64,000 nucleotides of DNA from a virus. The first letter of the stretch is position 1, and every line of letters starts with the position of its first letter. Below the pieces are notes generated by a model. The model was not told the DNA's origin and did not search any database. It saw only the letters and a program-made list of their open reading frames with translations. Positions 1 to 20,767 of the stretch are shown one piece after another. A program made the position numbers and the translations under genes. The stretch lies in the IMG/VR virus record IMGVR_UViG_3300032291_002123, positions 38,066 through 102,065 of that record; one strand, 5' to 3'.

Positions 1-3000
1 CATACATATACTTATCCCCGTATCTATCAGCAACTTCCCTTCTCAAGGCGGTTCTATCTTTGTAACTTCTTAGTAGTTCATTAGGGACGAGCATTTCCAT
101 AACTGAATAACCTTCCGAACTTGCAAACTGAGATGCTCTGCTATAGTTTGTAGAAACGTAAGTTCCAGGACCGATAACGCCATTTCCAATAAACGGCTTA
201 CCGTCAACTAACTCTTGAGAAGCATTATTGGGAGCACCCCTAAAAATTCTTGTCAGCCCCAGTTGAGCAGCGCTATTCCAAAGTTCTCTAAATTCATCTT
301 TTGTTACGCCTATTGCTGGTTTATCCCACCCTTGAGCCTCGATAACTTCTTTCATTTTTCTAAAATCTGTCTTATATCCATTGTTTTTTGGATTGTCTTC
401 TTCTTGCCCCCTATTCATAGGATATGAACCTAAGTCAATCTTCTTTCCGATTTTTGCTCTTTGGACGGCTTCATCAGCAACGGCATTTAAATCTTTAGGA
501 GTAGGTGAGCCTAAGTCCTCGTCAGTGGGGGTCTGTGAAGATTGAACCTTGCCAGCAAATTTTTCTCCGTCATCAGTTAGGTTCGAACTGTGGTAAATAG
601 GCATTCCAGCATTTGTTCTAGCAAACTCTAGAATCGCTGTAGCGAGACCCCTACGTTGGAAATCTTCGTCAACTTCAATCATGTTAATAGTAGAGAAAGG
701 CTTGAATTCATCAAAATTAGGGTCGTCTAAAGAACTACCGCCTATGGCATCGGGCCACCAGCGTCTTGAACCGTCAGGTAGGGTCTCTGAGGGAGGCTCT
801 GCATAAGTGACTAATGCTACAGGATTTATGTCTACTTCTCCATTAGGTTCATACGGGTACGCTAGCACTTTGCCATATCGTAGTTCTTCTCCACGCTGAT
901 TAATACTCCATCTATCGTCTCTAACTAACTGGAATCGATTACCGTCGGCGTCAGTGTATTCGCCAGTTTCGGTGATATTTTTGCGTTTACCTTCTTCCGA
1001 GATTTCAGTTTCTAGGTTGTTATCAGACTTAACACGCTTTCTAATTCTTTTTTGGGGAGTTAGGTCTGCGTCCTTGTCTTGGAATACAAGAGTAAATTCT
1101 TCGCCTAGGTCTTCTTCCATAACTTGGCTAGAAGATTGGACAGCGTCTGCGAAGCGAGACCCAGATGGAGTTCTGGTTGCGTCGTGATAGATAGGCATGC
1201 CAGCGTTGGTTCGGGCAAACTCCATCATTGCAGTAGCAATACCTTCACGCTGTAGGGAGTCGTCTACTTCAACCCAGTCGACGGTAGTGAACGGCTTGGT
1301 GTTATCAATTCTCACATTTTCTGAAGAGCCACCGACCTCGGTTTCATCCCACCTTAGTTTTTCTCTAGAGTTATCGTCGACTATGTAATAAGACTTTGCT
1401 TCAGAGTAGTAGAACGAGCCAATGGGCCAAGGGTCAACTTCCGTTGGCTCGATGAAAGAACCTGCGCCTGTGTCGTAAGCACCTTCGGCAGGTAGATATG
1501 CCTCTACGCTTCCTCTGCTTAAATACTCTCTGCCTTCATTGTCGATGTCCCACTGGTCATGGCGAGACAGGATAATCTTTTTGCCATCCTTGGTAACGTA
1601 TTCACCAGTCTCGGTGACGGTTCTAACCTTAGGGAACTCTTTGTTGGCAAACTGACCGCTTAGGTCTAGTTCTCTAACGCTGCTTTTTAGGTCATTGTTA
1701 GATTTAATGCGACTCTTAATTTCTTCTTGAGCGAGTCTTTTTTCCTCAGGTATCTTGCTTGTCACCCTTTCGAACAGAGCCTGAGAAGGAGAGACTCTGT
1801 CACGGACATCGCCGAGGTCTTCATCGAGAACTTGAGCAGGAGATTGGACTCCTGCAGCAAACTCCCTACCATCTTCGCTTAAGTGCTTGCTGTGGTAGAT
1901 AGGGAAGTCAGTGTCGCTGCGAGCCGCTTCTAGCATTGCAGTTGCTAGCCCACGGCGTCTGAACTCATATCTTACTAAAATGCCAGAAATTGTGTAGTAA
2001 GGCTTGTCTTCATCCACTTGGCTTATGTTGACGTCTGCAACTGCGTTCCAAGCACCGTAGCCAACTGGATACATGCTGTAGTCCATGTCACCAACAAGTA
2101 AGAGAGTCTCTTTGCCCCTAGCCATGACGTTGTGCTCTGCCACCATATAGATATTTTTCTCTATTGCCTCTGCTTGTCTCATTGCTGGGCGTGTGTGACT
2201 TATGATGTACTCGTTGCCTTGGGGGTCTGTATAATCAAAATCTTGTCGTATATGTTCTACGCCATCAATGACTAATTTTCTAGGCTCTGCGGCAGACTTA
2301 GTTAGGCGTTGCTTAACGCTTCTGTATTCCGCTGGAACGTCACTTCTAGAAGGTGCGCCTAGGTCTTCCTCTACTACCTGAGCACTAGATTGGACGGAGT
2401 TAGCAAACTGTCTACCGTCATCGCTTAGTATCGGGCTGTGATAAACAGGTGCGTCTAGTGATTCTCTGGCAGCCTCAAGCATTGCGGTTGCTAAACCTTT
2501 GCGCCGCTGTGCTGCATTTACGTAAATTGATGAAATACTATTAAAGGGCTTGTTTTTGTCAAACGGGGCGTAGTTCCCAGCCTCGTCTGGCGGAATGTAT
2601 ACAATTCCTCTTGGGTCAGTTCCTGCATCCCACTGGCTAAGCAGCATGCCGCCCACGTAATTTCCCTCAGAATCTTGTATATTGACAAGCGGGTCGAAAT
2701 AATACTCTGCTAAATCAGGTGAAACTGGCTCTTTTTCTGTAACTTTGGTTTGAGACACTATAACAGTAAACTTTTCTCCATCTTCTGAAGTGTAATCAAA
2801 AGTCTTAAGAGTCTCGCTTTGAGTGCTAGTTGGGTAATTTGTTTTAGTAGTCTTCTCATCGGCTTTTTTAAGTCTAGAAAGAACACTTCTAGATTTCTCG
2901 GAGTCTGGAATTCTAGAACTAGTGCCTAAGTCTTCATCCACGGTAGCGGCAGTAGATTGAACCGCTTCAGCAAATCCTCTACCCCTGTCGGTTATGACGG

Positions 3001-6000
3001 CGCTGTGGTAGATGGGGTAAGGTGCAGTTTGACGTGCAGCCTCAAGCATGGCGGTGGCTATACCCTGCCTTCTAAATTCTTCACCGACGTTAACTCCAGT
3101 GATGGTGTAGAAAGGCTTATCTAAATCGGCTTGTTCTAGGTTTATATCCGATATAAGCGAGAGAAGTTGAGACCTAGATTCTCCAGAGACATTTCGTAGC
3201 CTGTAGGTCATAGTGGCAACGCCACCATTTTCATTTTTTGCCGTTACTGACTGAGCGCCAGTGTACTCATTGGCATCGCCAAAGTTTGAGATGTTGCTAG
3301 TTACAGTGTATTTTTGTCCTTCAGGAGCCTCGTAATCAAAATTGTATTGACTGCGAGAAGGCACGCCCTTAGGTGCGACAATTTTATTTTCAGATGTTCT
3401 CTTTAGCCTGCTTCTAACTTCAGCAGATTTTGCGGAAACGTTAGTGTCGGCTGATACTCCCAAGTCTTCTTCTAATACTTGACTACTAGATTGAACGGCG
3501 TTAGCAAACGCTTCACCGACGCCATCGTTACCTAAGTACTTGCTGTGGTAGACAGGTATGTTAGTAGATTGTCTAACAGCCTCTAGCGCCGCTGTAGCCA
3601 AGCCTTTACGTCTTTTGTCTGGAGCAACAAATACTGAAGATATAACGTAAAAAGGTTTTTTGGTGTTTACACTGTCAGCATCTGAATCTCTCACAAAAAC
3701 CCTAGGGTCTGTCGCCCCAGCAGGGATTATCGACATTTGCATTCCACCAGCACGTTCGCCATTTGAATCATAGATTTTGATATGAGGCGGAATGTACATT
3801 GTGTTGCCAAATCTAACTTTTGCTCGATTAAGGCTAAATTTAATTTGGAACTTTTCCCCGTCTTCTGCCTCGTACTCAAACTCGTGGCTTACACCAATGT
3901 GGGTAGTCCCAAACCTTGCTTTCCAATACCTAGCGCCGCTACTACGACTTTTAGAGATATCTATTCTTTTTAGTCGTTTAAGAACTTCTTCATTCTTGGT
4001 GATGGCTTCTTTGTCAGATTTAGCATTTAGGTCAGACTTAAAGAAAGCGTCAATAGGTTTGATTTTGTCCAACAATCCAGACAATCTGTAGCGCAGCGCA
4101 TCTACTTGACGTCTGGCAGCCTCGGCAACCTGAGGGTTTTTAATTCCGTTAGCAATCTCGGCTGCTCTGTTTACAGAGTCTGCTGCTTTTTTCAGCGTAT
4201 CGTCGTCTAGTTTTTGTTGCTCTAGGTCAGCCTCGGCTGCGTCTACATATGTTCCTAGGTCTTCTTGCAGAATCGGCGGTGGAGATAAGAATTCTTCTGT
4301 GGTGCCAGTGGATGCAGAGTCAGTCTTGTCTTTGTCCTTAGCAGCCTTAACCAGCATTCCCATAGTGAAGGCATCGCTGTTAGCACCGATGAGCATATCT
4401 TCGGCTGATAGTTCACCATTTTCATAAGCCTCTACAACTTTTGAATTGTTGATGTATAGAACATCGTGGCGAGCCGACAAAATACGCTCTGTTCCAACAG
4501 TAAATACTTCATAGGCAGAGTCTGAATTTAGTTCTAAGTTCAAGCCGTCTTGACGGTCATAGAAATATACTCTTCCCGTGTATCTCTCCCTAAACATGTC
4601 ATAAAAAGCGACTTCATCGCTGTTCGGGTGAGTGTTTCTGCCAAGCGTGGAATATGACTCTAGAGAAATAGCGTTTCGGTCTTGACTGTCGTCCATGGCG
4701 TTAGGTCTAGAGCCGTCAGGGTTTTTAGGGAGAATCTGAGAGAACAAGAATCCCCACTCCATACTCTTTAGTTCTGGGTAAGCCTGCTCAAATAGGTGAC
4801 CTAATTCGTGCACGCCAACTGAACCGCCGAGTGGAATATCTGAATCGTGTGCATGCGTGCTTAGTGTTAGTTCGGTGCCGTCTCTATAGCCACCTCTGCC
4901 GTCAGGAGACCAGTCAACAGGCAGCATGCCACCCCAGAATTTTCCAGAATTCTTTACGTAGTCAGCCATTTTTTCTACTACTGCAGCAGGATAACTTCTC
5001 AAAGCCCACTTAATTGATTCTTTGGCTAAATCTACGGAGTCAGACATTTTAGGGTCTGGCATAGTCCTTCTTCTAATGCCATCAAACGAGATGAACTCGC
5101 TGCCGTCACCCTCGTACATAGGAATATCTAGGTCTTTAAAGAGTTGCTGGTATTCTTCCCTTGAAACTACACCTAATCTGTCAGATGCCTTAACGTAATT
5201 CTTTTTAATGTTTCTCAGTTCGATGCGACGTTTATACATGTCGACAACTTCTTGAACGTTGTTTTCGAGAGCGTACCACTCTAACGCCTGTTTTTTGTCG
5301 CCATTTGGTTTCTCAACGATTTTGACCCACTCGCTGTCAATTTTTCCTTGAATCCAATCTTCTTTACTGCGTTCTAATGCTTTTTGAAGAGCGAGGTTTT
5401 TTTGTTTAGGGTCTACAATATCCCTAATATCCTTACCTTCTGAGGCAACACGTATAAACATGGATTCCAGAAAGTCTTTTCTTTCTTCATACTGTTTCTC
5501 AGCCAAGGTGCGAGCGTAATCCCTAGTCTTTTGCTGTAGACGTTTTTCTTCTTCATTTCCAGAAACAACGCTAGCAAGTTTCTCAAAAATGTCGTCGCCA
5601 AACTCGTTTCTCATACGCTGAGAGATTCTTGCTCTGGCAGCAGCAGTTAGCGCCTGAGAGTTCTCGATAAAGGCGTCCATCTCGTCTAGAACTTGGTCGT
5701 CTGGACGCTGCTTCAATTTGAATGAGTCTGGGCTATTTGGAAGGAACTCGGCAAGACGCTTCATCTTTACCATGATGCGAGTGCCTAAACTCTGTTCGTT
5801 GGCATCTTTGTTTACAACTTCTGGAGAAAATAGGAAACTCGGAACAGAAGCATCCATCTCTAGAGCCATCTGCGCTAGAGTCTTATCCTCTTCTGTGGTT
5901 TGTAGGTCGATGCCAACCTTGGCAAGAGTCTCTTTTACTTCTGGAGAGTTAGGAGTGCCTAGGTCTTCTGGAAGAGTAGCCTTAGGGTCTCCACTGTAGA

Positions 6001-8044
6001 GCATCTGACCTTGACGCTCTTCACGCAGTTCTAATTCAGTCTTAGGGCGGTCAGAGCGAGAGTCGTTTTCTTCGGTCATCCACTCTGCAGCATTTTCAAT
6101 TGCTTGCTCTGGGTTGTCGTAAGTTCTACGGCTTGCAGGGTCGAACGAGTCTTGAGATTTCTTGTCGTTGTAAACCTCGCTGACCCATCTGCCTTGAGCG
6201 TTCTGTATAACCGTGCTGCGTAACGCTTCGTCAGAACTTGGCTCAGTGGCGTAAGAGCCGTCTTCTTGCTTAATGAAATCTTCAGGAGTAATTACATCGT
6301 CGTCGTGGACGTGCTCTAAACCTAATCTGTTCTTAAAGTCTCTAGCCTTTTTGTCTCTAGGGTTAGGCTGACGTGGAGAAGTGGTTTCGTTGTTCTCGGC
6401 AATAGCCTGAACGTCTTCCCAGTCTTGTGCGTAGCCGATAACTTCAGGCTTAATGTTCTTGTCTTCCCAAGGTGCAACTTGGCGAGTAATTTCAAAGATT
6501 GGCTGGTCGTCTTCAATTTCGGTTGAGCCACTGCGGAAGCCGTTAACTATAGCGCCGTTCTTAACGTTTGCTTCCATGCGCTGCTGCACTTCCTTGTGCT
6601 GCGCTGGCTGATAGCGTCTTACAGTGAAGCCGCCCAAATCCTTAGCGTTGTTCTTTGTCCTATAAGTCGAGTAAGGCAATCCCTTCTCGGGGTCTGCAGG
6701 AGTAACTGCGTCAAATGTGTTCTTAGGGAATTCTCCTTGAGGAACGTCTCCCCACATACGTCTCTGAACGCTTCCAGCACGCTTCTGGTCGTTCTTTCGG
6801 TCATAGCGTGATACGCCTGCCTGAACATCTCCCCAAGACTGGTAGTAGCCGATTGACTCATTTCCACTCTCGGTGAATCTACCTCGAGGTTGGCTTAGAG
6901 GATTAGTCATAACCTCATAAACAGGATACTTAGGGTCGAGAGCGCCGTTCTCACCTAAGCCTTTTACTTCTGCGCCATACTGCTCTTTGTGACGTTCTAA
7001 ATCTGGCAACGCTGCGCCAGCCTCGTGCTTAATCGCATAGTAGCCGTCAGCAGAAACGAATCCGTTTCCACCAGCAACCCAGCCAGATGGTGCGTCAATT
7101 TTTTGTAGCGTGTTTACATCTAATGCGTAGTCTCTTGCATAATCTGCTGAAGCCTTACCCTTGAGAGAAAGCATCTTTCCAAGTTTGCCGCCGATGTATG
7201 CCTTAACGCCTTCAACATTTGTGGCAGGAATTCTGAAGATTCCAGTTCCTAGAGTTGGGTGGTCAAATACTTCAACGTCAAAGGTATTAGTTTTAGGGTC
7301 TGAGCCGACAAACTTACCAACAACAGAATCGATGAAGCCTTTTAGTCCTCTGGTAAAGAACCTTGCTCCACCACCCATCCAAGCGAAGCGACCTCTACGG
7401 TCTCTACGCTGGAGTTTCGCCCGTGCCGAACGTGCTAAAAAAGAGTTCTCTCCTGAAAACGGGTTACTTGCAGCGATAATCGCAAGCACCACTTCTCTAG
7501 GCACGTCCTGTGCATCAGCAGACTCTAAGCGAGCGATAGAAAACTGACGCTCTACGGTATCTGGCACGGTTAGATACGCTGAAGCGACGACAGGTCTATA
7601 CTCCTCACTAATTCTTGAGTCTGCTGCAAACCACTCACTTCTCTTCTCAATCTTCTCGAGTAGAGATGCATACTCGGTAGAAGTTGATAGAGGGTGACCG
7701 ATAGGTAGTAGGTCGGTGTTGTTTTGAGAAATCTTAGATGGAGTTCCAGTGGTAGCCATGTTTATGTAATCTGAAACTTCACGCAAGGCGGTGAACGCTC
7801 TTGCTTGAGCATCTTGTGACATGATGCTTCTACTTAGTGAACGCTGTGCAACCGTCATAGCCTCGATTGGCATAACCTTACGAGCGTCTAGGACGTTCTC
7901 GTTGGCAGATGCAACCATAGCCTTGATGGTCTCCGAAAAACTTAACTCGCTTGACGGTTCGTCAGAAGGGAGTTCGTTAACGGCAGCAACGTCCAGAGCG
8001 TCAATCAACTGATTGACTGGGTTCTCTTCGTTACTAGGGTACAT
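1..8044 (-). CDS. Giant polyvalent (probably virion-delivered) effector protein, >2680 aa, 3'-truncated by the window: N-terminal domain, zincin metallopeptidase, 6 tandem GNAT domains, ADP-ribosyltransferase-like domain
   Basis: ATG at 8044 with AGAAGGA RBS (MYPSNEENPVNQLIDALD...). The same frame was open at every point I translated down to base 2, and the ORF track lists nothing in this frame, consistent with no stop. HELGH at 4796-4810 followed by YEVFTVGTE; six (Q/R)R(R/K/Q/E)G(L/I)ATA(M/I/A)(L/M)E motifs; RIFRG (236-250) ... GPGTYVSTNYSRASQFA (122-172). Confidence 0.9.
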   Translation of the reverse strand, partial: MYPSNEENPVNQLIDALDVAAVNELPSDEPSSELSFSETIKAMVASANENVLDARKVMPIEAMTVAQRSLSRSIMSQDAQARAFTALREVSDYINMATTGTPSKISQNNTDLLPIGHPLSTSTEYASLLEKIEKRSEWFAADSRISEEYRPVVASAYLTVPDTVERQFSIARLESADAQDVPREVVLAIIAASNPFSGENSFLARSARAKLQRRDRRGRFAWMGGGARFFTRGLKGFIDSVVGKFVGSDPKTNTFDVEVFDHPTLGTGIFRIPATNVEGVKAYIGGKLGKMLSLKGKASADYARDYALDVNTLQKIDAPSGWVAGGNGFVSADGYYAIKHEAGAALPDLERHKEQYGAEVKGLGENGALDPKYPVYEVMTNPLSQPRGRFTESGNESIGYYQSWGDVQAGVSRYDRKNDQKRAGSVQRRMWGDVPQGEFPKNTFDAVTPADPEKGLPYSTYRTKNNAKDLGGFTVRRYQPAQHKEVQQRMEANVKNGAIVNGFRSGSTEIEDDQPIFEITRQVAPWEDKNIKPEVIGYAQDWEDVQAIAENNETTSPRQPNPRDKKARDFKNRLGLEHVHDDDVITPEDFIKQEDGSYATEPSSDEALRSTVIQNAQGRWVSEVYNDKKSQDSFDPASRRTYDNPEQAIENAAEWMTEENDSRSDRPKTELELREERQGQMLYSGDPKATLPEDLGTPNSPEVKETLAKVGIDLQTTEEDKTLAQMALEMDASVPSFLFSPEVVNKDANEQSLGTRIMVKMKRLAEFLPNSPDSFKLKQRPDDQVLDEMDAFIENSQALTAAARARISQRMRNEFGDDIFEKLASVVSGNEEEKRLQQKTRDYARTLAEKQYEERKDFLESMFIRVASEGKDIRDIVDPKQKNLALQKALERSKEDWIQGKIDSEWVKIVEKPNGDKKQALEWYALENNVQEVVDMYKRRIELRNIKKNYVKASDRLGVVSREEYQQLFKDLDIPMYEGDGSEFISFDGIRRRTMPDPKMSDSVDLAKESIKWALRSYPAAVVEKMADYVKNSGKFWGGMLPVDWSPDGRGGYRDGTELTLSTHAHDSDIPLGGSVGVHELGHLFEQAYPELKSMEWGFLFSQILPKNPDGSRPNAMDDSQDRNAISLESYSTLGRNTHPNSDEVAFYDMFRERYTGRVYFYDRQDGLNLELNSDSAYEVFTVGTERILSARHDVLYINNSKVVEAYENGELSAEDMLIGANSDAFTMGMLVKAAKDKDKTDSASTGTTEEFLSPPPILQEDLGTYVDAAEADLEQQKLDDDTLKKAADSVNRAAEIANGIKNPQVAEAARRQVDALRYRLSGLLDKIKPIDAFFKSDLNAKSDKEAITKNEEVLKRLKRIDISKSRSSGARYWKARFGTTHIGVSHEFEYEAEDGEKFQIKFSLNRAKVRFGNTMYIPPHIKIYDSNGERAGGMQMSIIPAGATDPRVFVRDSDADSVNTKKPFYVISSVFVAPDKRRKGLATAALEAVRQSTNIPVYHSKYLGNDGVGEAFANAVQSSSQVLEEDLGVSADTNVSAKSAEVRSRLKRTSENKIVAPKGVPSRSQYNFDYEAPEGQKYTVTSNISNFGDANEYTGAQSVTAKNENGGVATMTYRLRNVSGESRSQLLSLISDINLEQADLDKPFYTITGVNVGEEFRRQGIATAMLEAARQTAPYPIYHSAVITDRGRGFAEAVQSTAATVDEDLGTSSRIPDSEKSRSVLSRLKKADEKTTKTNYPTSTQSETLKTFDYTSEDGEKFTVIVSQTKVTEKEPVSPDLAEYYFDPLVNIQDSEGNYVGGMLLSQWDAGTDPRGIVYIPPDEAGNYAPFDKNKPFNSISSIYVNAAQRRKGLATAMLEAARESLDAPVYHSPILSDDGRQFANSVQSSAQVVEEDLGAPSRSDVPAEYRSVKQRLTKSAAEPRKLVIDGVEHIRQDFDYTDPQGNEYIISHTRPAMRQAEAIEKNIYMVAEHNVMARGKETLLLVGDMDYSMYPVGYGAWNAVADVNISQVDEDKPYYTISGILVRYEFRRRGLATAMLEAARSDTDFPIYHSKHLSEDGREFAAGVQSPAQVLDEDLGDVRDRVSPSQALFERVTSKIPEEKRLAQEEIKSRIKSNNDLKSSVRELDLSGQFANKEFPKVRTVTETGEYVTKDGKKIILSRHDQWDIDNEGREYLSRGSVEAYLPAEGAYDTGAGSFIEPTEVDPWPIGSFYYSEAKSYYIVDDNSREKLRWDETEVGGSSENVRIDNTKPFTTVDWVEVDDSLQREGIATAMMEFARTNAGMPIYHDATRTPSGSRFADAVQSSSQVMEEDLGEEFTLVFQDKDADLTPQKRIRKRVKSDNNLETEISEEGKRKNITETGEYTDADGNRFQLVRDDRWSINQRGEELRYGKVLAYPYEPNGEVDINPVALVTYAEPPSETLPDGSRRWWPDAIGGSSLDDPNFDEFKPFSTINMIEVDEDFQRRGLATAILEFARTNAGMPIYHSSNLTDDGEKFAGKVQSSQTPTDEDLGSPTPKDLNAVADEAVQRAKIGKKIDLGSYPMNRGQEEDNPKNNGYKTDFRKMKEVIEAQGWDKPAIGVTKDEFRELWNSAAQLGLTRIFRGAPNNASQELVDGKPFIGNGVIGPGTYVSTNYSRASQFASSEGYSVMEMLVPNELLRSYKDRTALRREVADRYGDKYMY
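509..4000 (-). repeat. Six diverged tandem GNAT-domain repeats (~540-710 bp each) inside the giant ORF
   Basis: Each unit carries KP(F/Y)...V...RRxG(L/I)ATA.LE.AR....P(I/V)YH......G..FA..VQS......EDLG; units end at EDLG 3458, 2924, 2357, 1811, 1103 and 509. Confidence 0.9.
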
Positions 8045-8062: not shown

Positions 8063-8569
8063 CTAGAATTGAATAACTTGAACTTGTGTTGCGTCTGCAC
8101 CAACGATGGTGCCAAGTTGCCATAGCCACTTGTCATGCATGTCGATGCGCTCTGCAAGGAAGTTTATGATTCCCTGCTGGTTTAGAGCATTTGCGATTTC
8201 AAACGCCTCGAGCAGTGAGTCACGAAGAGTTTGGTTAATTCCGTGAAGAACTAAGGACATGGCAACAGGGTCGCCACCAGTTGGGCGAACCTCGATGCAA
8301 GAAAGACTTACGAAGTCTTGCAAGGTGAAAGGTGCGTCGTATCCGAGTTTACGAATGTGCTCAGCAAGTGGGTCAACTGCACTGTCTGCATCTTCGTAAA
8401 GTTTTTGGAAGAACTTGTGATACTGACTAAATTCAATGCCACGAACGTTCCAATGAAAACCTTGAGCGGTGAACTTGTAGGCAGTGGTGTCTGCAAGAAG
8501 GCAAGACAACTTATGGACTAGTTCTTGCTTGCCAACGCTAGCGCTGAGTTCGATTTCGATGTTTTCCAT
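8063..8569 (-). CDS. dps: Dps family DNA-binding ferritin-like protein
   Basis: HWNVRG.EF.QYHKFF..LY.....VD.LAE.IRKLG ferroxidase signature; HDKWLWQL C-terminus. Confidence 0.92.
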   Translation of the reverse strand: MENIEIELSASVGKQELVHKLSCLLADTTAYKFTAQGFHWNVRGIEFSQYHKFFQKLYEDADSAVDPLAEHIRKLGYDAPFTLQDFVSLSCIEVRPTGGDPVAMSLVLHGINQTLRDSLLEAFEIANALNQQGIINFLAERIDMHDKWLWQLGTIVGADATQVQVIQF

Positions 8570-8578
8570 TTATATCTC

Positions 8579-10393
8579 CTAGATTTCTATCTTCGGTTCA
8601 GCAAGCAATCCTGCTGGTGCTTCGTCGCCTGTAGGTGCTGCAGGTTGCGGTGCTTCTGCTGGTGCAGGAGTAGGCGCTGCTTCTGGGGTAGGTGCAGGTT
8701 CGGCTGGCGGTGCTTGTTCTGGTGCAGCAGGTGGTGCTTCACCCTGAAGCATTTGCTCCATACCTGGCGGCATAGGTGCAGGGTTACCAGCCTGTGATGC
8801 CTCACGAACCTTGTCCATAACGTCTGGTGCAACAACACCAAGCATTGCCTCTGTAAGTTCAGGTGTGATGACACCCTTGTTGATTAGAAGACGTAATGCA
8901 ACTTCAGTTGGAGACGGAGCCTCTGCCTCTGAGAAACCGTGGGTTCTACGCCAAGTCTCGAGGCTAACTGCCATCTTGTCGAAACCAGAGTCTGCATCTT
9001 GAGCACGGTCATTGCGAGTAGCAACAGCAGTAGGGTCAAACCAAACAACGATGCGGTTGACGTCGTTCTCTGAGAAACCGTTAGCAAGTAGATACGGACG
9101 TAGATACATAACAGTAAGAGCGTCAGCAATAAGCAACATCAGTGGTTCAATGTGTGCTTTGTAAAGGCTCTCGTCGATTTGTAGAGCATTTGAATACTTA
9201 ACGTTAGCCAAACCAGTAACGATGTCCTTAGGGACGTCTAAGCCTTGGAGGATGCGCTCAAGCACACGGTCAGAACGCTCGGCAAGCATTGGGTCGAATG
9301 AACGCTCGAACTTAAACTGCTTAATCTTGTCGCCCAGTTCAGCAGGACCTCTAATGATAAGTGGGACTACGGCTGAGGCGCTGTCCTCGTCCTTAATCGG
9401 CGTGGTCATAGCGTCGATGAGTTGGTCTTCGAACTCGTCTTCGACTTCCTCTGGAGTTGGGTCGGTGTAGATGCCGTCTTGGTCATCGTAAGGGTAGTCA
9501 GGGTCTGGAGAAGCAGAAACGCTAAGTCCATCTGGCAAGTAAAGAGCACCTGCGTTTAGACGACTCTTAGCGGTGGCACGGAAAGTGCGGTTAAGCAAAA
9601 GAAGTTCAGAGCAAAGGTCAAGGATTCCACGTAGTGATGAATCCGCCTCTTCAGAGAAACGTGGGTGTGCTTTCCAAATACGTCCAACGAACGCACCCTT
9701 AGGAATTGGGATAACGCCTGGCTTACCTGCTGATGCTGCAGCAACCTTCAACTCTCGACGTGGAGTGATTAGGTAGTTGCCCTTACCATCTGTGGTCAAC
9801 TCGTCAATAGAACGGATATCCCAAGACTCAGGCGCACCCGTTCCCGGACGTGCAGGAATCTGGCTTAGGTAGCACTCGCCAGCAACCTGCAAGTTAAGTG
9901 CAGCATCTCGTAGCAAACCAGCCTGACCGCCGTATGCGCTGTCGAGACGTGCGAGTGCACGCTCTGAAGCAGAAACCAAACGCTCGTCATAGTTTTCGAC
10001 GTTGCGAATAGGTGACGGAGTTTCAGATGGGTTTTCAACTACTGCTGCATAAAGACGCACTCTTGAGACAACGGCAGCAACAAGGTTGAAAGCGTATTTG
10101 ATTTCACCAATTGCGTCGTAATACTCCCACGCTTCCGTCTGCCACATGCTAGAGCCAGCACTACGACGTTGCCTAAACATATCTGCTTCATTGCGGTCAC
10201 CAAGTTTGATTTGGGTAGCAGCAGCAGTAAGTGGACGTGGTGTCGAGTAAACCGCTGGCTGTGCAGAGTTTGGGTTCTGATTTAGGAATACGGGTGGAAT
10301 GTATTGTGTCTGAGGTGCGACAGGAGCCGACGCTCTTATACCCTGTTGTGGTCTTTTAGGGTTAGAGGCAGGTTCTTTACTAAAGATGCCCAA
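8579..10393 (-). CDS. Portal protein (actinophage type)
   Basis: WQTEAWEYYDAIGEIKY...SRVRLYAA and ASAVVPLII motifs as in actinophage portals; Pro/Ala-rich tail; close to the terminase and upstream of head genes. Confidence 0.8.
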   Translation of the reverse strand: MGIFSKEPASNPKRPQQGIRASAPVAPQTQYIPPVFLNQNPNSAQPAVYSTPRPLTAAATQIKLGDRNEADMFRQRRSAGSSMWQTEAWEYYDAIGEIKYAFNLVAAVVSRVRLYAAVVENPSETPSPIRNVENYDERLVSASERALARLDSAYGGQAGLLRDAALNLQVAGECYLSQIPARPGTGAPESWDIRSIDELTTDGKGNYLITPRRELKVAAASAGKPGVIPIPKGAFVGRIWKAHPRFSEEADSSLRGILDLCSELLLLNRTFRATAKSRLNAGALYLPDGLSVSASPDPDYPYDDQDGIYTDPTPEEVEDEFEDQLIDAMTTPIKDEDSASAVVPLIIRGPAELGDKIKQFKFERSFDPMLAERSDRVLERILQGLDVPKDIVTGLANVKYSNALQIDESLYKAHIEPLMLLIADALTVMYLRPYLLANGFSENDVNRIVVWFDPTAVATRNDRAQDADSGFDKMAVSLETWRRTHGFSEAEAPSPTEVALRLLINKGVITPELTEAMLGVVAPDVMDKVREASQAGNPAPMPPGMEQMLQGEAPPAAPEQAPPAEPAPTPEAAPTPAPAEAPQPAAPTGDEAPAGLLAEPKIEI

Positions 10394-14641: not shown

Positions 14642-15190
14642 TTAGGCAACTCGGTTCTTGCTGTTGATTGGTTTGTATACCTTAGAGGTAGCGTTAGGCG
14701 CAGGTTTGTATCCATAGCGAGCAAGTCGGAATCGAATTGCCCCGTGAGATACGCCTAGTCGCTTTGCCAATCGGTAGAGCGTAACTCCATCTATGCTGTG
14801 CGCTTGGTTCAGCAAGCGAGTGTATTCCTCTGCCTCAGCACGATACCTAGGCGAGTGAGAGCGAACCTGTTGCGCTAGCGGTTGTAGTTCGAGCAGACGA
14901 GTTAGAATCTCGTCAGACGGCTCAACATACTCACGCTTGATTTTCTCAGGGTGGAATGGTGGTGTCGGAATGATGTAGTCGTCTCCTAGTTCAAGACCGG
15001 GAGATTTCATTTCGATAATCTGTCGGATACGCTCACGAGAGATACCGCAAGCATTTGCGATTGATTGAAGTGTCCAACCCATCGCTCTCAACTTGCGAAC
15101 ATACTCGTTGCGCTCGTCTCCGTCTTTGATTGTAAGAATCTTTGCTCTTACCTCAGGCGGTAGAGTGATTTGTCTTTTCATTTGGTTCAT
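14642..15190 (-). CDS. Double HTH protein (sigma70 region-4-like first HTH)
   Basis: WTLQSIANACGISRERIRQI and VTLYRLAKRLGVSHGAIRFRL. Confidence 0.75.
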   Translation of the reverse strand: MNQMKRQITLPPEVRAKILTIKDGDERNEYVRKLRAMGWTLQSIANACGISRERIRQIIEMKSPGLELGDDYIIPTPPFHPEKIKREYVEPSDEILTRLLELQPLAQQVRSHSPRYRAEAEEYTRLLNQAHSIDGVTLYRLAKRLGVSHGAIRFRLARYGYKPAPNATSKVYKPINSKNRVA

Positions 15191-15266
15191 TTGTCTGTCC
15201 TTATGTTGTTGTTTCTAGTTTAGATGGTTTGTTCAGTTCGTCAAGAGTTGTATGCTCTTGGCTAAC

Positions 15267-15635
15267 TTAGTCAATAATCAATTTCACCTTGTCATCTCCA
15301 TCAAAGACGGCAAGTAAGGTTGCTTCATCAACCACGCCCGTGATTTGTAATCCGTTTTTCTCTTGGAATAACATAATGTCGCTCTTAGTAGCATCACCGA
15401 ACCAGCCCTCTTTGTCTTTGAGAGCAAGTGTGAAGCCCAACTCGGCAAGTCTCTGCTGTAAGTAGTAGACACTCACCGAACGCTTAGAGATTGGGTTCTT
15501 GAATACAATCGCAGATAGGCGAACCTCAGCGATGTCGTCAAGTTTTATCCCAGCCTCAACCAATTTCCGCTCTTGGTGAGCATAAACTTGGTCTAAGGAT
15601 ACGGGAATAGGCACTTTGTATCGCTTTTCGGTCAT
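15267..15635 (-). CDS. Peptidoglycan-binding domain protein
   Basis: VYYLQQRLAELGF...GWFGDATKSDIMLFQEKNGLQITGVVDEATL (PG_binding_1 pattern). Confidence 0.8.
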   Translation of the reverse strand: MTEKRYKVPIPVSLDQVYAHQERKLVEAGIKLDDIAEVRLSAIVFKNPISKRSVSVYYLQQRLAELGFTLALKDKEGWFGDATKSDIMLFQEKNGLQITGVVDEATLLAVFDGDDKVKLIID

Positions 15636-15805
15636 TCAGACCTCTGTGCGAGGATTGATGCCACGATAGCCCCAGAAGCAAGGGAAATCACTAAATTAGT
15701 GGCTCCGGGAGCCAAAATAGCCACAAAAATAGCCAAAATCGTCAAAAATACAGCAAAAATGGCACTCCAAACCACATTTTTCAGCAAAAATCGCAGTTTA
15801 TTCAT
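15632..15805 (-). CDS. Small two-TM membrane protein (57 aa)
   Basis: Manual translation MNKLRFLLKNVVWSAIFAVFLTILAIFVAILAPGATNLVISLASGAIVASILAQRSE; AAGGAG RBS; stop overlaps the next ATG. Confidence 0.65.
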   Translation of the reverse strand: MNKLRFLLKNVVWSAIFAVFLTILAIFVAILAPGATNLVISLASGAIVASILAQRSE

Positions 15806-15973
15806 CTTTTTTCTCCTTTTTAGAGGTCGGCAGCACTACCCCAAGCAAAGGGCCGCTGTTTTTCCACGCATTTTGTTTCTTTATTATGATTTTCTGTATA
15901 ACATAATACAAACCTCCATAAATAGCAAGCAATCCGAGCAGAGATAGCACGATAATTAGTTCCATTTGAGTTC

Positions 15974-16969
15974 CTAACTCCTAACCAATGTATTCGAGTA
16001 GATGTCTTTGACAACATTTGCCCAGATTCTAGGCGTGTGGGTCTCGGCTTGGTATCCGCCAGCCCCGCCAATCAACACTCGCCCCTTACAATGCTTGTTA
16101 GCAAGGTCAGCGACAACACTTGAAGCATAGCGGTAGCCATCGTAGGTGTATTTCAAGCCCCAGCCCTCGCCCTCGTGTCCATCTGCCCCTGTTGCGAGCA
16201 GAATTACATCAGGCTCATACTCGTCAATCTTTTCGGCAATCAGGTCAATAGCCCAAGCCAACGCCTCGTCGCCCTCTCCTCGCTGTAAGTTGAAGTTATA
16301 CCAATGCTTGTCAGGGTCAGAGTATTCGTAGTTGCCTAGGTCATCCATCCCTCGCAACCAAGTGTCTGAGTGAACAGGGTAGACTCCGTGTCCGTGAATC
16401 GAGAAGGTGGGTATGTCCGTATCCTCTAAGAGATTCTGAACGCCGTCGCCAGCGTTTACATCCCAATCGATGTAGGCAACTTTCAAGCCAGCCTTACGAA
16501 ACTCTTTCGCAGCCCAAGCGAAGTCATTGAATACACAGAAGCCCTCAGACCAGCCGTATTGTGCGTGGTGTTTAGCACCCTGTGGATTGAAGCCAACCTG
16601 AGTTTCGCCAGCAATCATTTTCTCAACAAGGCGAGCAGTTCCAGCGAACATCTGAAAGGCGGTGTTGCCCATCTCTGTGCGCTTTCCATCCCAATCGTGA
16701 GACACTCCCTTATCAATTACCTCGCTCACGAACTTAGGGTCGTGGATAGTCTCCAACGCCTCCCTATCGCCATCACGGATTTCGGGTTCGATAATCTCCA
16801 CATTATCCGCACCAAGTTCCTCGGTAATGTATTGGGTAGCCAACTTAGCCCTAATCGGTTTCGTAGGGTGCGAGCCATCGCCAGAGCCTAACTGCCATTT
16901 GAGGTAGTCGTCGCTGTAAGCGATTGTTAGTTTATTTGGGTATGTCAATCTGTCCTTTTTTTCTTTCAT
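15974..16969 (-). CDS. Histone deacetylase / AcuC-family Zn-dependent deacylase
   Basis: HP.KP.R, GAKHHA...GFCVFND, YIDWDVNAGDGVQ, SIHG, GADGH, GGAGGY. Confidence 0.9.
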   Translation of the reverse strand: MKEKKDRLTYPNKLTIAYSDDYLKWQLGSGDGSHPTKPIRAKLATQYITEELGADNVEIIEPEIRDGDREALETIHDPKFVSEVIDKGVSHDWDGKRTEMGNTAFQMFAGTARLVEKMIAGETQVGFNPQGAKHHAQYGWSEGFCVFNDFAWAAKEFRKAGLKVAYIDWDVNAGDGVQNLLEDTDIPTFSIHGHGVYPVHSDTWLRGMDDLGNYEYSDPDKHWYNFNLQRGEGDEALAWAIDLIAEKIDEYEPDVILLATGADGHEGEGWGLKYTYDGYRYASSVVADLANKHCKGRVLIGGAGGYQAETHTPRIWANVVKDIYSNTLVRS

Positions 16970-17240
16970 CGTGTTTCTAAGTTATCAAATAAACTAGAAA
17001 AAGTCAAGTTTTGCGTGGAAAATCCTTGACCCTTTGTAATAAGCCTTATGTAATAACTTAGTCTCCGAGGTGTTCGTGCCTATCGTGCTTGTTCAGCCAA
17101 TCGGTAAGCCAGAATAAGCCAGCCAGCATTATGACGATAGAGCCAATAACAGCACCAAAAATTAGTAGAGTTTCCATAGCCATAATCTAGCATAAAAGAA
17201 ACCCCCTGACATAAGTCAAGGGGTCGTGTCTTTTTAGGGT

Positions 17241-17486
17241 CTAGCCCTCCACAGAAGCCTCATAGAAAGGCGGAAGTGGTTGAGTTGATGCCAGAGCCTT
17301 GCCGAACTTTTCTATCGCCAAGCAGGTGTCAGCAATCCAAGTGTCGTAAAGCACCTTGTCCACACCTGAGTGGGCTTCGTTCTTTTTTGCTTTCAACTCG
17401 GTAAGCGAGAACAAAAGAACGCTTTTCATAAATTGTAGTTCTTGGGTCTCGAACTCTACTGAGGTTGAGGTTTTTGTTTCTGTCAT
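17241..17486 (-). CDS. Hypothetical protein
   Basis: RBS, co-oriented, followed by a hairpin at 17201-17224. Confidence 0.65.
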   Translation of the reverse strand: MTETKTSTSVEFETQELQFMKSVLLFSLTELKAKKNEAHSGVDKVLYDTWIADTCLAIEKFGKALASTQPLPPFYEASVEG

Positions 17487-17500
17487 TTCTTTCTCCGTTT

Positions 17501-17929
17501 CTAGTTGTTTTTGTTGTTTAGGTAGTTGATGTAGCCGTCGCTGTTGATTTCTGCCTGATACTCGTCGGCATACACCCTCGGGTTAGTTTCTACTCTTGGG
17601 TAAGCACAGGTAGAGCAAAGGTCGTAGTCGATGTCAATCCCAACTCCGCAAACGCACTTGCGCTCCTCCAACTCCTCGGGTTCGGGTTCGATGTCTCGGG
17701 TATCGCCCTCGTCGATAATCGGGTTAGCCAATCGCTCTCGCTCATACTCCTCACCCTGAGCAACTCCAACCTCGTAGCCCGTGTCATAGGCGAGGTCGAA
17801 AATCATACGGGTGTTGTAGAGGTGTAGGTATGGTTCGGTCTTGTTATACCAATCCCAGAACGCAGCCTCTCGCACTCGTGCTTTTCGGGTGCTTACATCT
17901 AGGAAAGCGTTTACTTCGTCTTGTGTCAT
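17501..17929 (-). CDS. Hypothetical protein (CxC...CxxC)
   Basis: AAAGGA RBS; acidic; Cys pairs. Confidence 0.65.
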   Translation of the reverse strand: MTQDEVNAFLDVSTRKARVREAAFWDWYNKTEPYLHLYNTRMIFDLAYDTGYEVGVAQGEEYERERLANPIIDEGDTRDIEPEPEELEERKCVCGVGIDIDYDLCSTCAYPRVETNPRVYADEYQAEINSDGYINYLNNKNN

Positions 17930-18283
17930 TTTTGTCCTTTCTACAATACTAGGTTAGTCCGTGTCGAAGTGTTTGTCAAGTTCACTCGCCAAATAATTTA
18001 CGGCAATCGCAAGAATTAGGAAACACCCACCGATTAGCAGATTTGAGAATACAAGAGCATAACCAAAAGTTCCGCTAAACAGGATTGCCAGAGCAACTCC
18101 TCGAAGTAGGATTACCAATCCCTCCCGATTGTTCTTGCTCACTTGTTCCTCTGCGGTCTGCTCTTGGCGATTTGATTTATAGCCCAAGCAAAAGCCAACG
18201 CCCCAGATACAATCAGCCCAATAGCAGCCACTAAAAGTAGTTCTCTCATTTTGTCCTTTCGTCGTTTCTATGTTAGCACATTA

Positions 18284-18550
18284 TCACAGATAAGGCAACA
18301 TACCAAGCCGTCTCGACAATTCTGCCTCACATTGCGTTGAGAGGTCGCCAAAGACCTCCTCAGCGTTCGGGATAGTTCCTGACCTGTCTAGGTAAGTAAT
18401 CCCAGCGATAAGGCTCACGAGAGTGTTTACCGAGAACTCAATCTCATTGTCAAAGTCTAAAAATCCAGCGGTGAAGTTGTCGTTCACTCGATTGACAAAG
18501 GCGACGATTTCGTCGTCTGTCATTTCGGTAATGCTTTTTTCGGCAGCCAT
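18284..18550 (-). CDS. Hypothetical protein
   Basis: GAAAGG RBS; co-oriented. Confidence 0.6.
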   Translation of the reverse strand: MAAEKSITEMTDDEIVAFVNRVNDNFTAGFLDFDNEIEFSVNTLVSLIAGITYLDRSGTIPNAEEVFGDLSTQCEAELSRRLGMLPYL

Positions 18551-18661
18551 AGTAAGCCTTTCTTTGTTTATTATTTTAGCAGATTATTCTGCGTGGAAAA
18601 TCCCCTACCCTTTACGACAGAGCCGAACTCTCGCTCGGCTTGTCGGTGGGTGGGTGTATCC

Positions 18662-18880
18662 TTACCCGAAAAGATTTTTCCAGCAGGGTGGGCAATACCC
18701 TGATTGGAAACGCTCACGCTGGTCGGCGGTGAGATTAGGGAAAGCGTTTTGTATCAACGCCCCCTGATTGTAATCGAACAGGTTCTTGGAACTGACCTCA
18801 ACCTGAATAGTTCCCTCACACTTAGGGCAAGGCTTAGAGGTTGCGAGATACTCGCCCTCTTTGATTTTCTCGAACTTCAT
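18662..18880 (-). CDS. Small zinc-binding hypothetical protein
   Basis: CPKC...IQNAFPNLTADQRERFQSGYCPPCW; AAGGAG RBS. Confidence 0.7.
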   Translation of the reverse strand: MKFEKIKEGEYLATSKPCPKCEGTIQVEVSSKNLFDYNQGALIQNAFPNLTADQRERFQSGYCPPCWKNLFG

Positions 18881-19042
18881 TTTGCTCTCCTTTTTATTTT
18901 CTAACTAAACACGAACTCGGTAAACTCGCCAAGCGAGATTTCGCCACGGATAAGTTGCCATAGCAAAAGTGTCTGCCTCTTTTTTCGTAGCGAACTGATA
19001 AGGCTGAACACCTTGACCACGAACCTCAATAACCCAAATCAT

Positions 19043-19531
19043 TTACACCAACTCCTGTTCATCTTGTAAAACCACAAGCGAGACCACGCCTCGCTCTTTG
19101 ATTGGGTAGAACCCATACTGACCACGAGCAAAGTGGTAGTAGACATTAGCCAACTTGTAGCCCTTGCTCTCGTAGAACTTTTGCTGTTTGCCGTAAGAAT
19201 TAGCAACCGAAACATTGACCCACGATACAGAACCATCTGGGTTGTTTACTCGCCACACCTTGCCATACTTGCCGTCTACAATTTTTGCGTCTACGACATT
19301 ACCCTCCAAGTCGAGCAAAGCGTTTTCGTAATCAACGCCGTGATTGCGAGCCAAGCGAGCCTCACGGATGTGTTCACGATACATACCCTCGTGATAAAAA
19401 GCGTAGCCGTCGTTATCCAAAATACGCTGTTTGTCTAACTCAACAGCGTGAGCGTTCTGCTCACACTCGACAGCGTGAGCCTCCCACTCTTGTGGCGAAA
19501 CTCCCTCACGATACCAAATCGAAACTGACAT
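19043..19531 (-). CDS. Hypothetical early protein
   Basis: Own hybrid promoter and GAAAGGAG RBS. Confidence 0.7.
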   Translation of the reverse strand: MSVSIWYREGVSPQEWEAHAVECEQNAHAVELDKQRILDNDGYAFYHEGMYREHIREARLARNHGVDYENALLDLEGNVVDAKIVDGKYGKVWRVNNPDGSVSWVNVSVANSYGKQQKFYESKGYKLANVYYHFARGQYGFYPIKERGVVSLVVLQDEQELV

Positions 19532-19583
19532 TTGTATCTCCTTTCACTAAAATAGTATCAAAGACTACTGACATTTGTCAAGT

Positions 19584-20033
19584 CTAAAAGCCATTGTTTT
19601 TCGCACAGACAGGGCCGATACCCTCGGCAACGCTCTTAGGGTCTGTCAGGAAAATACCGCAGACACAGCACATACCTGTTTCCATACCAAAAGCCTTAGC
19701 CTGTTCCAGCGACATTTTGTGTTCTGGTTTTAGGCGATAGATAGCCCCAGCCTCATACTCGAAACCGCCCTCTAATGCGTTCAGTTTCTTAGCGTAAAGA
19801 CGGCTACTCATTTTGCTCGGGTGAACTCGGTAGATGTCGCCGTTCGGCATACGATACATACCAACCTCGCCGACAATTCCAGCAGCCCGAGGTGCTTTTA
19901 GTAGCGAACCGATTAGGTCGCTAGCGTCTTTCGAGGTGAGAACCTCAAAGTTGATTTCCTCGCCATTGTAGACACGCTCGGTTAGGAGTTTCTCGATGAA
20001 CTCCACCTGTCGAACTGATACCTTGTTAGCCAT
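19584..20033 (-). CDS. DUF6011-like zinc-ribbon protein
   Basis: GMCCVCGIFLTDPKSVAEGIGPVCA C-terminus. Confidence 0.75.
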   Translation of the reverse strand: MANKVSVRQVEFIEKLLTERVYNGEEINFEVLTSKDASDLIGSLLKAPRAAGIVGEVGMYRMPNGDIYRVHPSKMSSRLYAKKLNALEGGFEYEAGAIYRLKPEHKMSLEQAKAFGMETGMCCVCGIFLTDPKSVAEGIGPVCAKNNGF

Positions 20034-20263
20034 TTGCTATCCTCTCTCTCTTACAACTAAAAGATAGCACACCCCCCTGACATTTGTCAATTCCTATTAG
20101 GCGTGTCGCTTATGTAATTATTTTGCCAGGCGGTTGCTAGGCTGCCTCGCTCAAAGGGTGGGGCTTTTTCCACGCAAAACCAGCCAAAAATAAAAGATAG
20201 TTAGCGTAAGTAATAAAAAAAGAACCTTGCCTCTCGGCAAAGTTCTTTTTCGTGTGGTTCGGT

Positions 20264-20497
20264 TTACTCCTGCGAAAGTCGCTCGTTCATTAGAGCCAAG
20301 ACCTGTCGGCTGTGAGCCAGCACTTCGGTAAGCCTCTCGACCTCGCTGTGTATTTTTAGGTCAATCACCTTTTGGGATAACTTGACCAATCCCTCCATAA
20401 TTTTTATCTGCTCTGCCATAGCCCATACGATAGCCTCTCGTGGTGCGTTGGCGATTGTGGTTTCCCACTCCTCAATCGAGGTTAGTTGTTTTGACAT
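20264..20497 (-). CDS. Hypothetical protein
   Basis: Start re-set to MSKQ after an AAGGAAG RBS; terminator at 20221-20250. Confidence 0.6.
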   Translation of the reverse strand: MSKQLTSIEEWETTIANAPREAIVWAMAEQIKIMEGLVKLSQKVIDLKIHSEVERLTEVLAHSRQVLALMNERLSQE

Positions 20498-20557
20498 AAC
20501 TTCCTTTGGTTGTTTCGGCAAGGGGGAGATGTTCTCAATCCCCCGAGCCAAGTTTTT

Positions 20558-20767
20558 TTATTTAGCGTTTGCCCAAGCAATCGCTTTGTTGATTAGAGGT
20601 AGGCAAGCCATAAAGACCAGCCAAGAGAAATACATCACGAGCAGGTTATCCCACACGCCAGCACTTCCCGGTTCCGCACCCAGAGCCATTAGCAATAGGT
20701 TTAGAACGACATAAGCCAGAAAAATTACAGGAAAGAAAATCGTTCCTCGAACTAATCGCTTTATCAT
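20558..20767 (-). CDS. Small two-TM membrane protein
   Basis: Two hydrophobic segments; GAAAGGA RBS. Confidence 0.65.
   Translation of the reverse strand: MIKRLVRGTIFFPVIFLAYVVLNLLLMALGAEPGSAGVWDNLLVMYFSWLVFMACLPLINKAIAWANAK

Follow-up and report, generated by a model that had tools for sequence, protein, structure and literature searches.

PVP1, a giant protein encoded on the minus strand at the start of the window (the 64,000-nucleotide stretch analysed here, bases 38066-102065 of the 102,065-bp virus record IMGVR_UViG_3300032291_002123, for which CheckV gives a completeness of 76%), is a phage polyvalent protein, and well-supported domain identities define it as a variant with an array of GNAT-like units, short boundary tags and an Apk2-like toxin with its candidate immunity protein, a combination of which no description was found in the searched literature. 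A single 2976-residue open reading frame (ORF) joins several unrelated conflict-type domains, comprising a zincin, six GNAT units, an ART fold and an RSH domain. The gene lies among head genes, with the portal gene two genes upstream; further downstream come the genes for a fusion of MuF-like and prohead-protease parts and for the major capsid protein. A 2017 study predicted that polyvalent proteins act as injected weapons with many tools, which their own zinc protease cuts up (Iyer et al. 2017; PMC5512222). On balance, PVP1 is probably a head-module effector polyprotein that travels in the virion and is cut at its tags, where we infer both the cutting and the delivery. The protein belongs to an uncultured freshwater phage related to the predicted actinophage DSL-LC01.

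Gene and domain organisation of PVP1

When frames with open ends are listed, PVP1 appears as one minus-strand ORF at window positions 2..8044, with 2681 codons and an open 3' end, as had been described in the original prediction made from this DNA, which reported an unbroken frame of at least 2681 codons. Its absence from the default ORF list is explained solely by the frame running off the window edge. Extension of the contig and translation, proposed there as a check, revealed that the frame stays open and gives a complete gene from 46109 down to 37179 of the whole record. The part within the window (1..8044, minus strand) encodes residues 1-2681, and the gene runs 886 nt past the window start (L004:7182-16109, minus strand). 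Translation is assigned to the ATG at 8044-8042, preceded 7 nt upstream by a GAAGGA ribosome-binding site at 8056-8051, while the stop codon of the upstream gene (8065-8063) lies 18 nt ahead of the PVP1 start. PVP1 is 295 residues longer than the part visible in the window and terminates in a further enzyme domain, not in the ART-like domain. The structural reading of the original prediction was otherwise sound. It had missed the C-terminal Apk2-like toxin with the immunity gene, a second giant protein (PVP2) and a recurring EDLG tag at module boundaries, and these alter the mechanistic picture.

GNAT-like units

The array, on the minus strand throughout, begins with a helical linker (residues 1265-1342) and GNAT-like unit 1 (residues 1343-1529, KRRKGLATAALE), which together span 3458..4252 and end in an EDLG tag at 3458-3469. 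It continues with unit 2 (residues 1530-1707, FRRQGIATAMLE; 2924..3457, EDLG at 2924-2935), unit 3 (residues 1708-1896, QRRKGLATAMLE; 2357..2923, EDLG at 2357-2368), which was the unit modelled, unit 4 (residues 1897-2078, FRRRGLATAMLE; 1811..2356, EDLG at 1811-1822), unit 5 (residues 2079-2314, LQREGIATAMME; 1103..1810, EDLG at 1103-1114) and unit 6 (residues 2315-2512, FQRRGLATAILE; 509..1102, EDLG at 509-520). The six units, of ~180-235 residues each, can be aligned over their full length (29-45% identity to unit 1, 26 invariant columns), and each of the six acetyl-CoA motifs quoted in the original prediction is present in them. An alignment of 21 units, comprising the six of PVP1 and 15 from three IMG/VR contigs (four phages), revealed that the R, G, T and A of motif A plus a later R and P are invariant in 21 of 21 units, with an H-S pair nearly invariant. 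The motif A pyrophosphate loop, Q/R-x-x-G-x-G/A after strand β4, was identified in all six PVP1 units and in all 21 units across the four phages. The same alignment displays the conserved CoA-binding half and the very divergent N-terminal halves that had been noted from the window.

The AF2 model of unit 3 presents a pLDDT of 86.5 and a pTM of 0.82. All of its listed Foldseek matches are GNATs, the best being ESCO1 (4.6e-4, TM 0.37), and ~47 of the 50 VIA matches listed belong to the GNAT superfamily, with Z 5.4-7.4 (HAT1: Z 7.4, root mean square deviation (rmsd) of 3.1 Å over 95 aligned residues). Major differences from the usual fold involve long N-terminal β-hairpins, which stand in place of α1-α2, and a disordered tail after α4. 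Modelling the repeats had been proposed as a check on the GNAT assignment; with a confident model matched almost solely by GNATs, the PVP1 repeats model confidently as a divergent, minimal GNAT fold. At the sequence level, Acetyltransf_1 matches the whole of PVP1 at 1.9e-24 (86.6 bits against a cut-off of 20.7), while of the six units taken singly five score 21.0, 21.4, 20.3, 21.5 and 16.2 bits, with matches confined to the surroundings of motif A, and one does not match. A six-unit profile aligned with PDB GNATs across 26 residues of motif A only (E 0.035).

In the unit tree, positional orthologues are shared between phages; units 5 and 6 pair as sisters, whereas units 1-4 group in a clade specific to the lineage. 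The positional orthologues suggest that the units are old, separately maintained paralogues, a pattern consistent with the earlier proposal of a diversified acetyltransferase set.

Distribution of GNAT arrays

A survey with the six-unit profile against 1.84 billion cluster representatives retrieved 345 proteins at E ≤ 0.001, 75 of them at E ≤ 1e-10. Among the best 150 of the 345, 84 exceed 1000 residues, 52 carry three or more units and nine carry five or more, the maximum being twelve. Distant arrays score strongly on GNAT models (P0010: Acetyltransf_1 4.3e-72), and some add an Arr-type ART. The suggestion that a six-GNAT array is undescribed stands in that none was found in the searched literature, where a full-text search also gave no description of multi-GNAT polyvalent proteins after 2017; such an array is not singular, as giant proteins with 3 to 12 units occur commonly in metagenomes. 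A tblastn search of the six-unit array against GenBank phages (50,697 records) returned one marginal match, in Mycolicibacterium phage Kashi_SSH1 (1e-3). The family is seemingly absent from cultured GenBank phages, and the class is thus so far known from metagenomes only. For the genomic surroundings of relatives, the analysis covered the IMG/VR loci L009-L011, two of which extend the range of arrangements: one (L010:2-13894) encodes a giant of >4631 residues with eight GNAT units that is followed by a second giant (14806-20706), as in the PVP1 record, and another (L011:3542-13642) encodes a giant of >3367 residues with five GNAT units.

ART-fold domain

The domain following the array extends from residue 2513 to 2742, of which residues 2513-2681 lie in the window (1..508, minus strand); the remainder and the ninth EDLG tag fall beyond it, within L004:7182-8066. 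The strings RIFRG, GPGTYVST and RASQFA, which the original prediction had used to recognise an ART domain in the form RIFRG...GPGTYVST..RA.QFA, were located at residues 2599-2641. The AF2 model of residues 2513-2742 has a pLDDT of 80.9, and nearly all of its top 36 VIA matches are ART folds at Z 4.0-6.4, ExoA among them (Z 6.1, rmsd 5.5, 143 aligned). Matches of the model include ExoA, cholix, diphtheria toxin, PARPs, ParT, MbcT and RES, and Foldseek returned ExoA, cholix and PARP, 2.4e-3 being the best value. The segment thus models as an ART fold, which agrees with the earlier assignment. The best VIA match, a pre-ejectosome chain of cyanophage A4 (Z 6.4, rmsd 5.9), is regarded as a loose lead; the A4 paper does not call the domain ART. 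In domain numbering, R90-G91 and T116-Y117 are invariant, S119 varies between S, T and A, and E138 is present in PVP1. The conserved residues (R90-G91, Y117-V-S119-T, E138) look like a putative R-S-E triad. The Atlas feature lead for this segment is ART-PolyVal (0.91). No usable PHROG match, no PDB sequence match and, in the IMG/VR scan, no close relatives were found.

Apk-like domain and its immunity candidate

The last 234 residues of PVP1 (residues 2743-2976; outside the window, within L004:7182-8066, minus strand) constitute an RSH domain resembling Apk2 pyrophosphokinases. It matches PDB 8vx3, the solved exported alarmone synthetase SaEAS, at 3.3e-11 and Tas1 weakly at 0.019, and phrog_2859 at 6.6e-54; tblastn hits were obtained in the C-termini of Pasteurella and Streptococcus pneumoniae prophage head-morphogenesis proteins (1e-13 to 4e-16, 30-34% identity). 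The Apk2 signatures RYT, GxN and xH are present, as is the catalytic Asp, the residue mutated in the 8vx3 crystal construct. Apk2 proteins are experimentally characterised (p)ppApp-synthetase toxins of S. pneumoniae, Mannheimia haemolytica and Pasteurella multocida prophages (PMC12226406). By homology, the PVP1 C-terminus is predicted to be a RelA/SpoT-type domain of this (p)ppApp-synthetase toxin kind.

The stop codon of PVP1 is separated by 9 nt from the start of a gene for a 71-residue protein (L004:6957-7169, minus strand). A 74-residue paralogue with 52% identity (L008:6648-6869, minus strand) directly follows PVP2, and contig L010 likewise encodes a homologue behind its giant. None of the three matches a known family, and the 71-residue protein has no PDB sequence match. 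In the complex model of the Apk-like domain with the 71-residue protein, the score is 0.92 against 0.20 for the best control; among 80 solved complexes 58 attain that mark, compared with 2 among 110 mismatched pairs, counts that are rough as own alignments were used. Model runs have at least 83% of contacts in common and a partner pLDDT of at least 90. The modelled contacts of the small protein fall on Y126, G128 and N130, the syn3 acceptor-nucleotide site. The modelling supports the 71-residue protein as the immunity protein of the Apk-like toxin domain; with its paralogue, it is a candidate for a new family of immunity proteins. An Aph1-type hydrolase was not found: the 132-, 77- and 224-residue ORFs after the giants match no family.

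N-terminal region and zincin

The N-terminal region of PVP1 comprises residues 1-696 (5957..8044, minus strand) and ends in the EDLG tag at 5957-5968. No usable Pfam or PHROG match was obtained for it. It is the best-conserved part among full-length relatives, with end-to-end matches to P0003, P0004, P0005 and P0008, and residues 34-360 present 34% identity to the N-terminus of a giant ORF of DSL-LC01. Within it, a module of ~87 residues (residues 198-284; 7193..7453, minus strand) corresponds to residues 22-108 at the N-terminus of PVP2 (40% identity, E 3e-12) and recurs in two DSL-LC01 proteins as well. This module common to PVP1 and PVP2 is a candidate capsid-targeting or packaging module, and the N-terminal region presumably serves head incorporation, loading or anchoring.

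Residues 697-1264 (4253..5956, minus strand; EDLG tag at 4253-4264) comprise a helical region and then a gluzincin-type metallopeptidase core (~residues 1000-1200). Motif search and homologue alignment place the HELGH zinc-binding/catalytic motif at residues 1079-1083 (4796..4810, minus strand), exactly where it had been read from the sequence along with a downstream Glu, and both are invariant in seven homologues. All seven of these diverged homologues, distant P0029 included, keep the three fixed residues of HExxH, the Glu at +3 and the E-x7-E of a helix further downstream in the alignment. This pattern of HExxH, E(+3) and downstream Glu matches the gluzincin pattern described for the metallopeptidases (MPTases) of polyvalent proteins, and the conserved signature points to a gluzincin-type metallopeptidase in residues ~1000-1200. 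For this region, Atlas gives 'zincin-like metallopeptidase' as a lead, scored at 0.94.

Boundary tags

PVP1 contains nine copies of EDLG where 0.08 would be expected, with one copy per module boundary, including the boundaries outside the repeats. PVP2 contains four EDLG and one DDLG, and across all six frames of the 102-kb record 13 of the 14 EDLG copies lie in PVP1 and PVP2. In both models (unit 3 and ART), the tags fall in disordered tails. Close relatives retain [ED]DLG, while ~30%-identical relatives display E[DE][LIF]P at the same places, with 4 to 14 copies per protein against 0.7-1.5 expected. The latter motif is also found at non-GNAT boundaries, namely on both sides of the Apk-like domain and at the end of the N-terminal region. 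More distant arrays have other short motifs at their boundaries. In distant relatives (P0110, P0153-P0157 and L012:9410-10576), modules are bounded by KH..G.HDQSSHG(S/N)WA, and a full-text literature search found no description of an HDQSSH-type motif.

In P0012, the last GNAT unit is joined straight to the Apk-like domain, the ART module being missing exactly between two EDLG tags. The tags thus seem to be the sites at which modules are acquired or dropped. In P0007, the ART module is kept, but with Gln at the putative catalytic Glu.

From their sequence and placement, we infer that EDLG-type tags serve for processing. Their hydrophobic position (Leu/Ile/Phe), conserved behind a pair of acidic residues, would fit the P1' site of a zincin that prefers hydrophobic side chains. 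A search of PVP2 for HExxH found none, so that PVP2, which is tagged, would at least have to be cut in trans if the tags are cut at all. In phage T4, the prohead protease cuts packaged cargo after a short acidic L/I-x-E motif, and the cargo carries an N-terminal capsid-targeting sequence. This cutting of T4 cargo after a short acidic motif makes a prohead protease an equal candidate to the zincin. A search for a similar site where the capsid protein would be matured yielded only a DEVG at residue 138, which is too weak a basis for ascribing the tags to the prohead protease. A bolder possibility, put forward tentatively, is that the boundary tag is a lineage-specific protease code defining true viral polyproteins, which would be loaded as a single programmable chain and cut into free paralogous GNAT effectors with separate targets, an ART and an alarmone toxin, with modules exchanged by recombination at the tags.

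Genomic context

The minus-strand gene order is large terminase, portal, a 168-residue Dps/ferritin-like gene, PVP1, ORFs of 71 and 132 residues and PVP2, followed by ORFs of 74, 77 and 224 residues, a 1737-residue protein, the 685-residue major capsid protein, and connector and tail genes. The portal gene (8579..10393, minus strand, 604 residues; phrog_776, 6.5e-104), two genes upstream of PVP1, agrees with the earlier view of a phage-type polyvalent protein beside a portal. The portal presents 68.5% identity to its counterpart in DSL-LC01, an Actinomycetia phage of 129 kb that was assembled from a freshwater metagenome, with Actinomycetia as predicted host and a predicted lysogenic lifestyle (PMC10611076). 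The giant ORF of DSL-LC01 shares only the N-terminal region with PVP1 and contains neither EDLG nor HExxH. Between portal and PVP1 lies the Dps/ferritin-like gene (8063..8569, minus strand; Ferritin PF00210 3.5e-14, phrog_3636 2.6e-22). A head module is an odd location for a DNA-protecting or iron-binding protein, and this product may be packaged too.

PVP2 (L008:6887-18484; genome 24884-36484, minus strand) is a second giant of 3866 residues, with a Zeta-toxin kinase domain at residues 3310-3450 (PF06414, 5.2e-13) and a C-terminal Apk-like domain that is 57% identical to that of PVP1. For most of its length no family was identified, and it does not match the GNAT unit profile. The 1737-residue protein (L008:431-5641; genome 18428-23641, minus strand) comprises a MuF-like stretch, corresponding to phrog_2859 positions 164-267, and a prohead-protease region (phrog_18402, 8e-61; weak Peptidase_S78), and looks like a head-morphogenesis/protease/scaffold fusion. 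The major capsid protein (L005:6293-8347; genome 16290-18347, minus strand) has a very acidic N-terminal extension of ~165 residues, within which the DEVG at residue 138 lies, ahead of its phrog_777 match.

Proposed mechanism and alternative interpretations

In the favoured reading, PVP1 would be loaded into the procapsid via its N-terminal region, which is partly common to PVP2. A protease, either its own zincin or the prohead protease encoded downstream, would then cut it at the tags into pieces mostly of 20-30 kDa. These would leave the head together with the DNA and take effect immediately in the next cell, where the GNAT units may acylate different host targets, the ART domain may ADP-ribosylate a target and the Apk-like domain may deplete ATP by making (p)ppApp. 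While virions are being produced, the toxin domain would be restrained by the 71-residue protein, which the model places over the acceptor-nucleotide (syn3) site.

Several observations weigh against this scheme. The record is a metagenomic contig, from which packaging, cleavage and injection can only be proposed. PVP1 has no MuF domain or other known head-targeting signal in Pfam and PHROG scans. The zincin region matches no peptidase family in Pfam (E up to 5) or PHROGs (E up to 1) and has no PDB sequence match. For the array, the fold matches are middling (TM ~0.3-0.4, Z <8) and single units barely reach or miss the Pfam cut-off of 20.7 bits; as the unit lacks the usual α1-α2 helices and the C-terminal strands, GNAT catalysis is not assured. 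The ART segment has no Pfam match at E up to 5, ART-PolyVal PF18760 included, and its putative catalytic Glu (E138) is Gln in the 94%-identical P0007 and Lys in the distant P0110. Finally, the Apk-like domain is internal, not C-terminal, in some relatives, and part of the complex score may stem from likeness, since solved pairs of the family exist (e.g. Tas1-Tis1).

Two alternatives concern whether the chain is cut and whether its units act as enzymes. The tags could be mere flexible linkers inherited with duplicated units, leaving an uncut 330-kDa chain that, like the N4 virion RNA polymerase, is packaged whole or acts in the producing cell. Six of the nine tags do belong to repeats, and some MPTase-bearing polyvalent proteins are packaged unprocessed (Iyer et al., PMC5512222). 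Yet tags also bound the N-terminal region and the zincin, ART and Apk modules, and occur in PVP2 with unrelated modules; their acidic-acidic-hydrophobic-G/P core is kept while the flanking linker diverges, even in ~30%-identical relatives, and EDLG is nearly absent from the remaining genome. We therefore regard this explanation as rather unlikely, with perhaps the best prospects among the alternatives. The minimal and atypical fold of the units with its long N-terminal β-hairpins, their middling fold scores and their very divergent N-terminal halves would also fit catalytically dead structural beads that provide internal mass in the head or ejection channel. A purely structural role is decidedly improbable, as the R-x-G-x-A-T-A loop and the P-x-x-H-S segment vary little or not at all in 21 units from four phages, which is hard to explain if no ligand is bound, and distant arrays are strong on GNAT models (the Acetyltransf_1 match of P0010 cited above).

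The other two alternatives keep the enzymes and change their purpose. PVP1 might mainly be a toxin-immunity weapon for lysogen competition or exclusion, similar to MuF polymorphic toxins, in which the Apk-like domain is the payload and the GNAT and ART domains are accessory or decaying. This agrees with the homology of the C-terminal domain to Apk2tox of temperate prophages (PMC12226406), with the immunity-like gene that comes next and with the predicted lysogeny of the relative DSL-LC01 (PMC10611076). It is nevertheless unlikely, because PVP1 lacks a MuF match, each GNAT unit is conserved across long divergence and the same architecture recurs with an internal Apk-like domain. The array might instead detoxify small molecules, such as aminoglycoside-type antiphage compounds from actinobacterial hosts or neighbours. 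Aminoglycosides block early phage infection, AAC(3) and AAC(6') are among the fold matches, and the predicted host group is Actinomycetia. Protein acetyltransferases (ESCO1, HAT1, RimI and NatA) match equally well or better, however, and no substrate class is indicated by sequence, which makes detoxification very improbable. Delivery by the virion and cutting at the tags remain the favoured reading of PVP1.

As far as the searched literature shows, the cutting sites of polyvalent proteins are unnamed and their GNAT modules are without tests. The EDLG-type tag is a candidate cleavage code for such proteins. The minimal GNAT units, which appear to be long-lived paralogues in arrays of up to twelve, are of interest as mapping their targets would reveal the host systems that a phage has to disable first. 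Encoded in two copies and outside the MuF family, an Apk2-like (p)ppApp toxin accompanied by a new candidate small immunity protein would extend the reach of these toxins beyond the temperate prophages of pathogens.

Comparison with known systems

Similar to PVP1, the phage-type polyvalent proteins (PMC5512222) carry many unrelated conflict-type domains per chain and are encoded among late or head genes. Their hub domain is a zincin MPTase, the predicted processor of the chain, and PVP1 also has a zincin. GNAT, ART and RelA/SpoT modules are listed for them, with GNAT usually beside ART, and all three are present in PVP1. Major differences involve the number of GNATs, the boundaries and the ART family. 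The members described in that study have single GNAT modules, whereas PVP1 relatives have three to twelve divergent units; up to 12 copies in one phage-type polyvalent protein are reported there for ART. No boundary motif or cleavage site is named, in contrast to the EDLG tags of PVP1. Their ART family displays H-Y-[ED], while PVP1 has R-G on strand 1 and Y-V-S-T on strand 2 in an R-S-E-like arrangement, and the derived Pfam models do not match it.

T4 Alt, the T4 internal proteins IPI-III and the P1 Dar proteins are enzymes or anti-defence proteins that travel inside the head and enter the cell along with the DNA, to which the delivery proposed for PVP1, a protein known from sequence alone, is likened. 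They are separate small proteins with one cut each, in contrast to the ~ten modules with a repeated tag on the one chain of PVP1. Rac of phiKMV-type phages, as cited in PMC7824862, is a phage GNAT used early on a host machine, acetylating the RNA polymerase alpha subunit. It is a solo expressed protein, unlike the putatively virion-borne array of PVP1, which is set beside it by description only.

The closest parallel for the C-terminus is provided by the Apk2 MuF toxins, which, as in PVP1, combine a homologous C-terminal domain with a head-module gene and a small downstream gene. For IapK, the reported mechanism covers the acceptor site (PMC12226406), as modelled for the 71-residue protein. 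In contrast, this small protein has no detectable similarity to known families, and no Aph1-type hydrolase was recognised next to PVP1. The Apk2 toxins possess an N-terminal MuF domain, whereas PVP1 has no MuF match and the MuF-like segment belongs to the separate 1737-residue protein. In PVP1, the toxin is the last of ~ten modules, and the cassette is present twice, in PVP1 and in PVP2.

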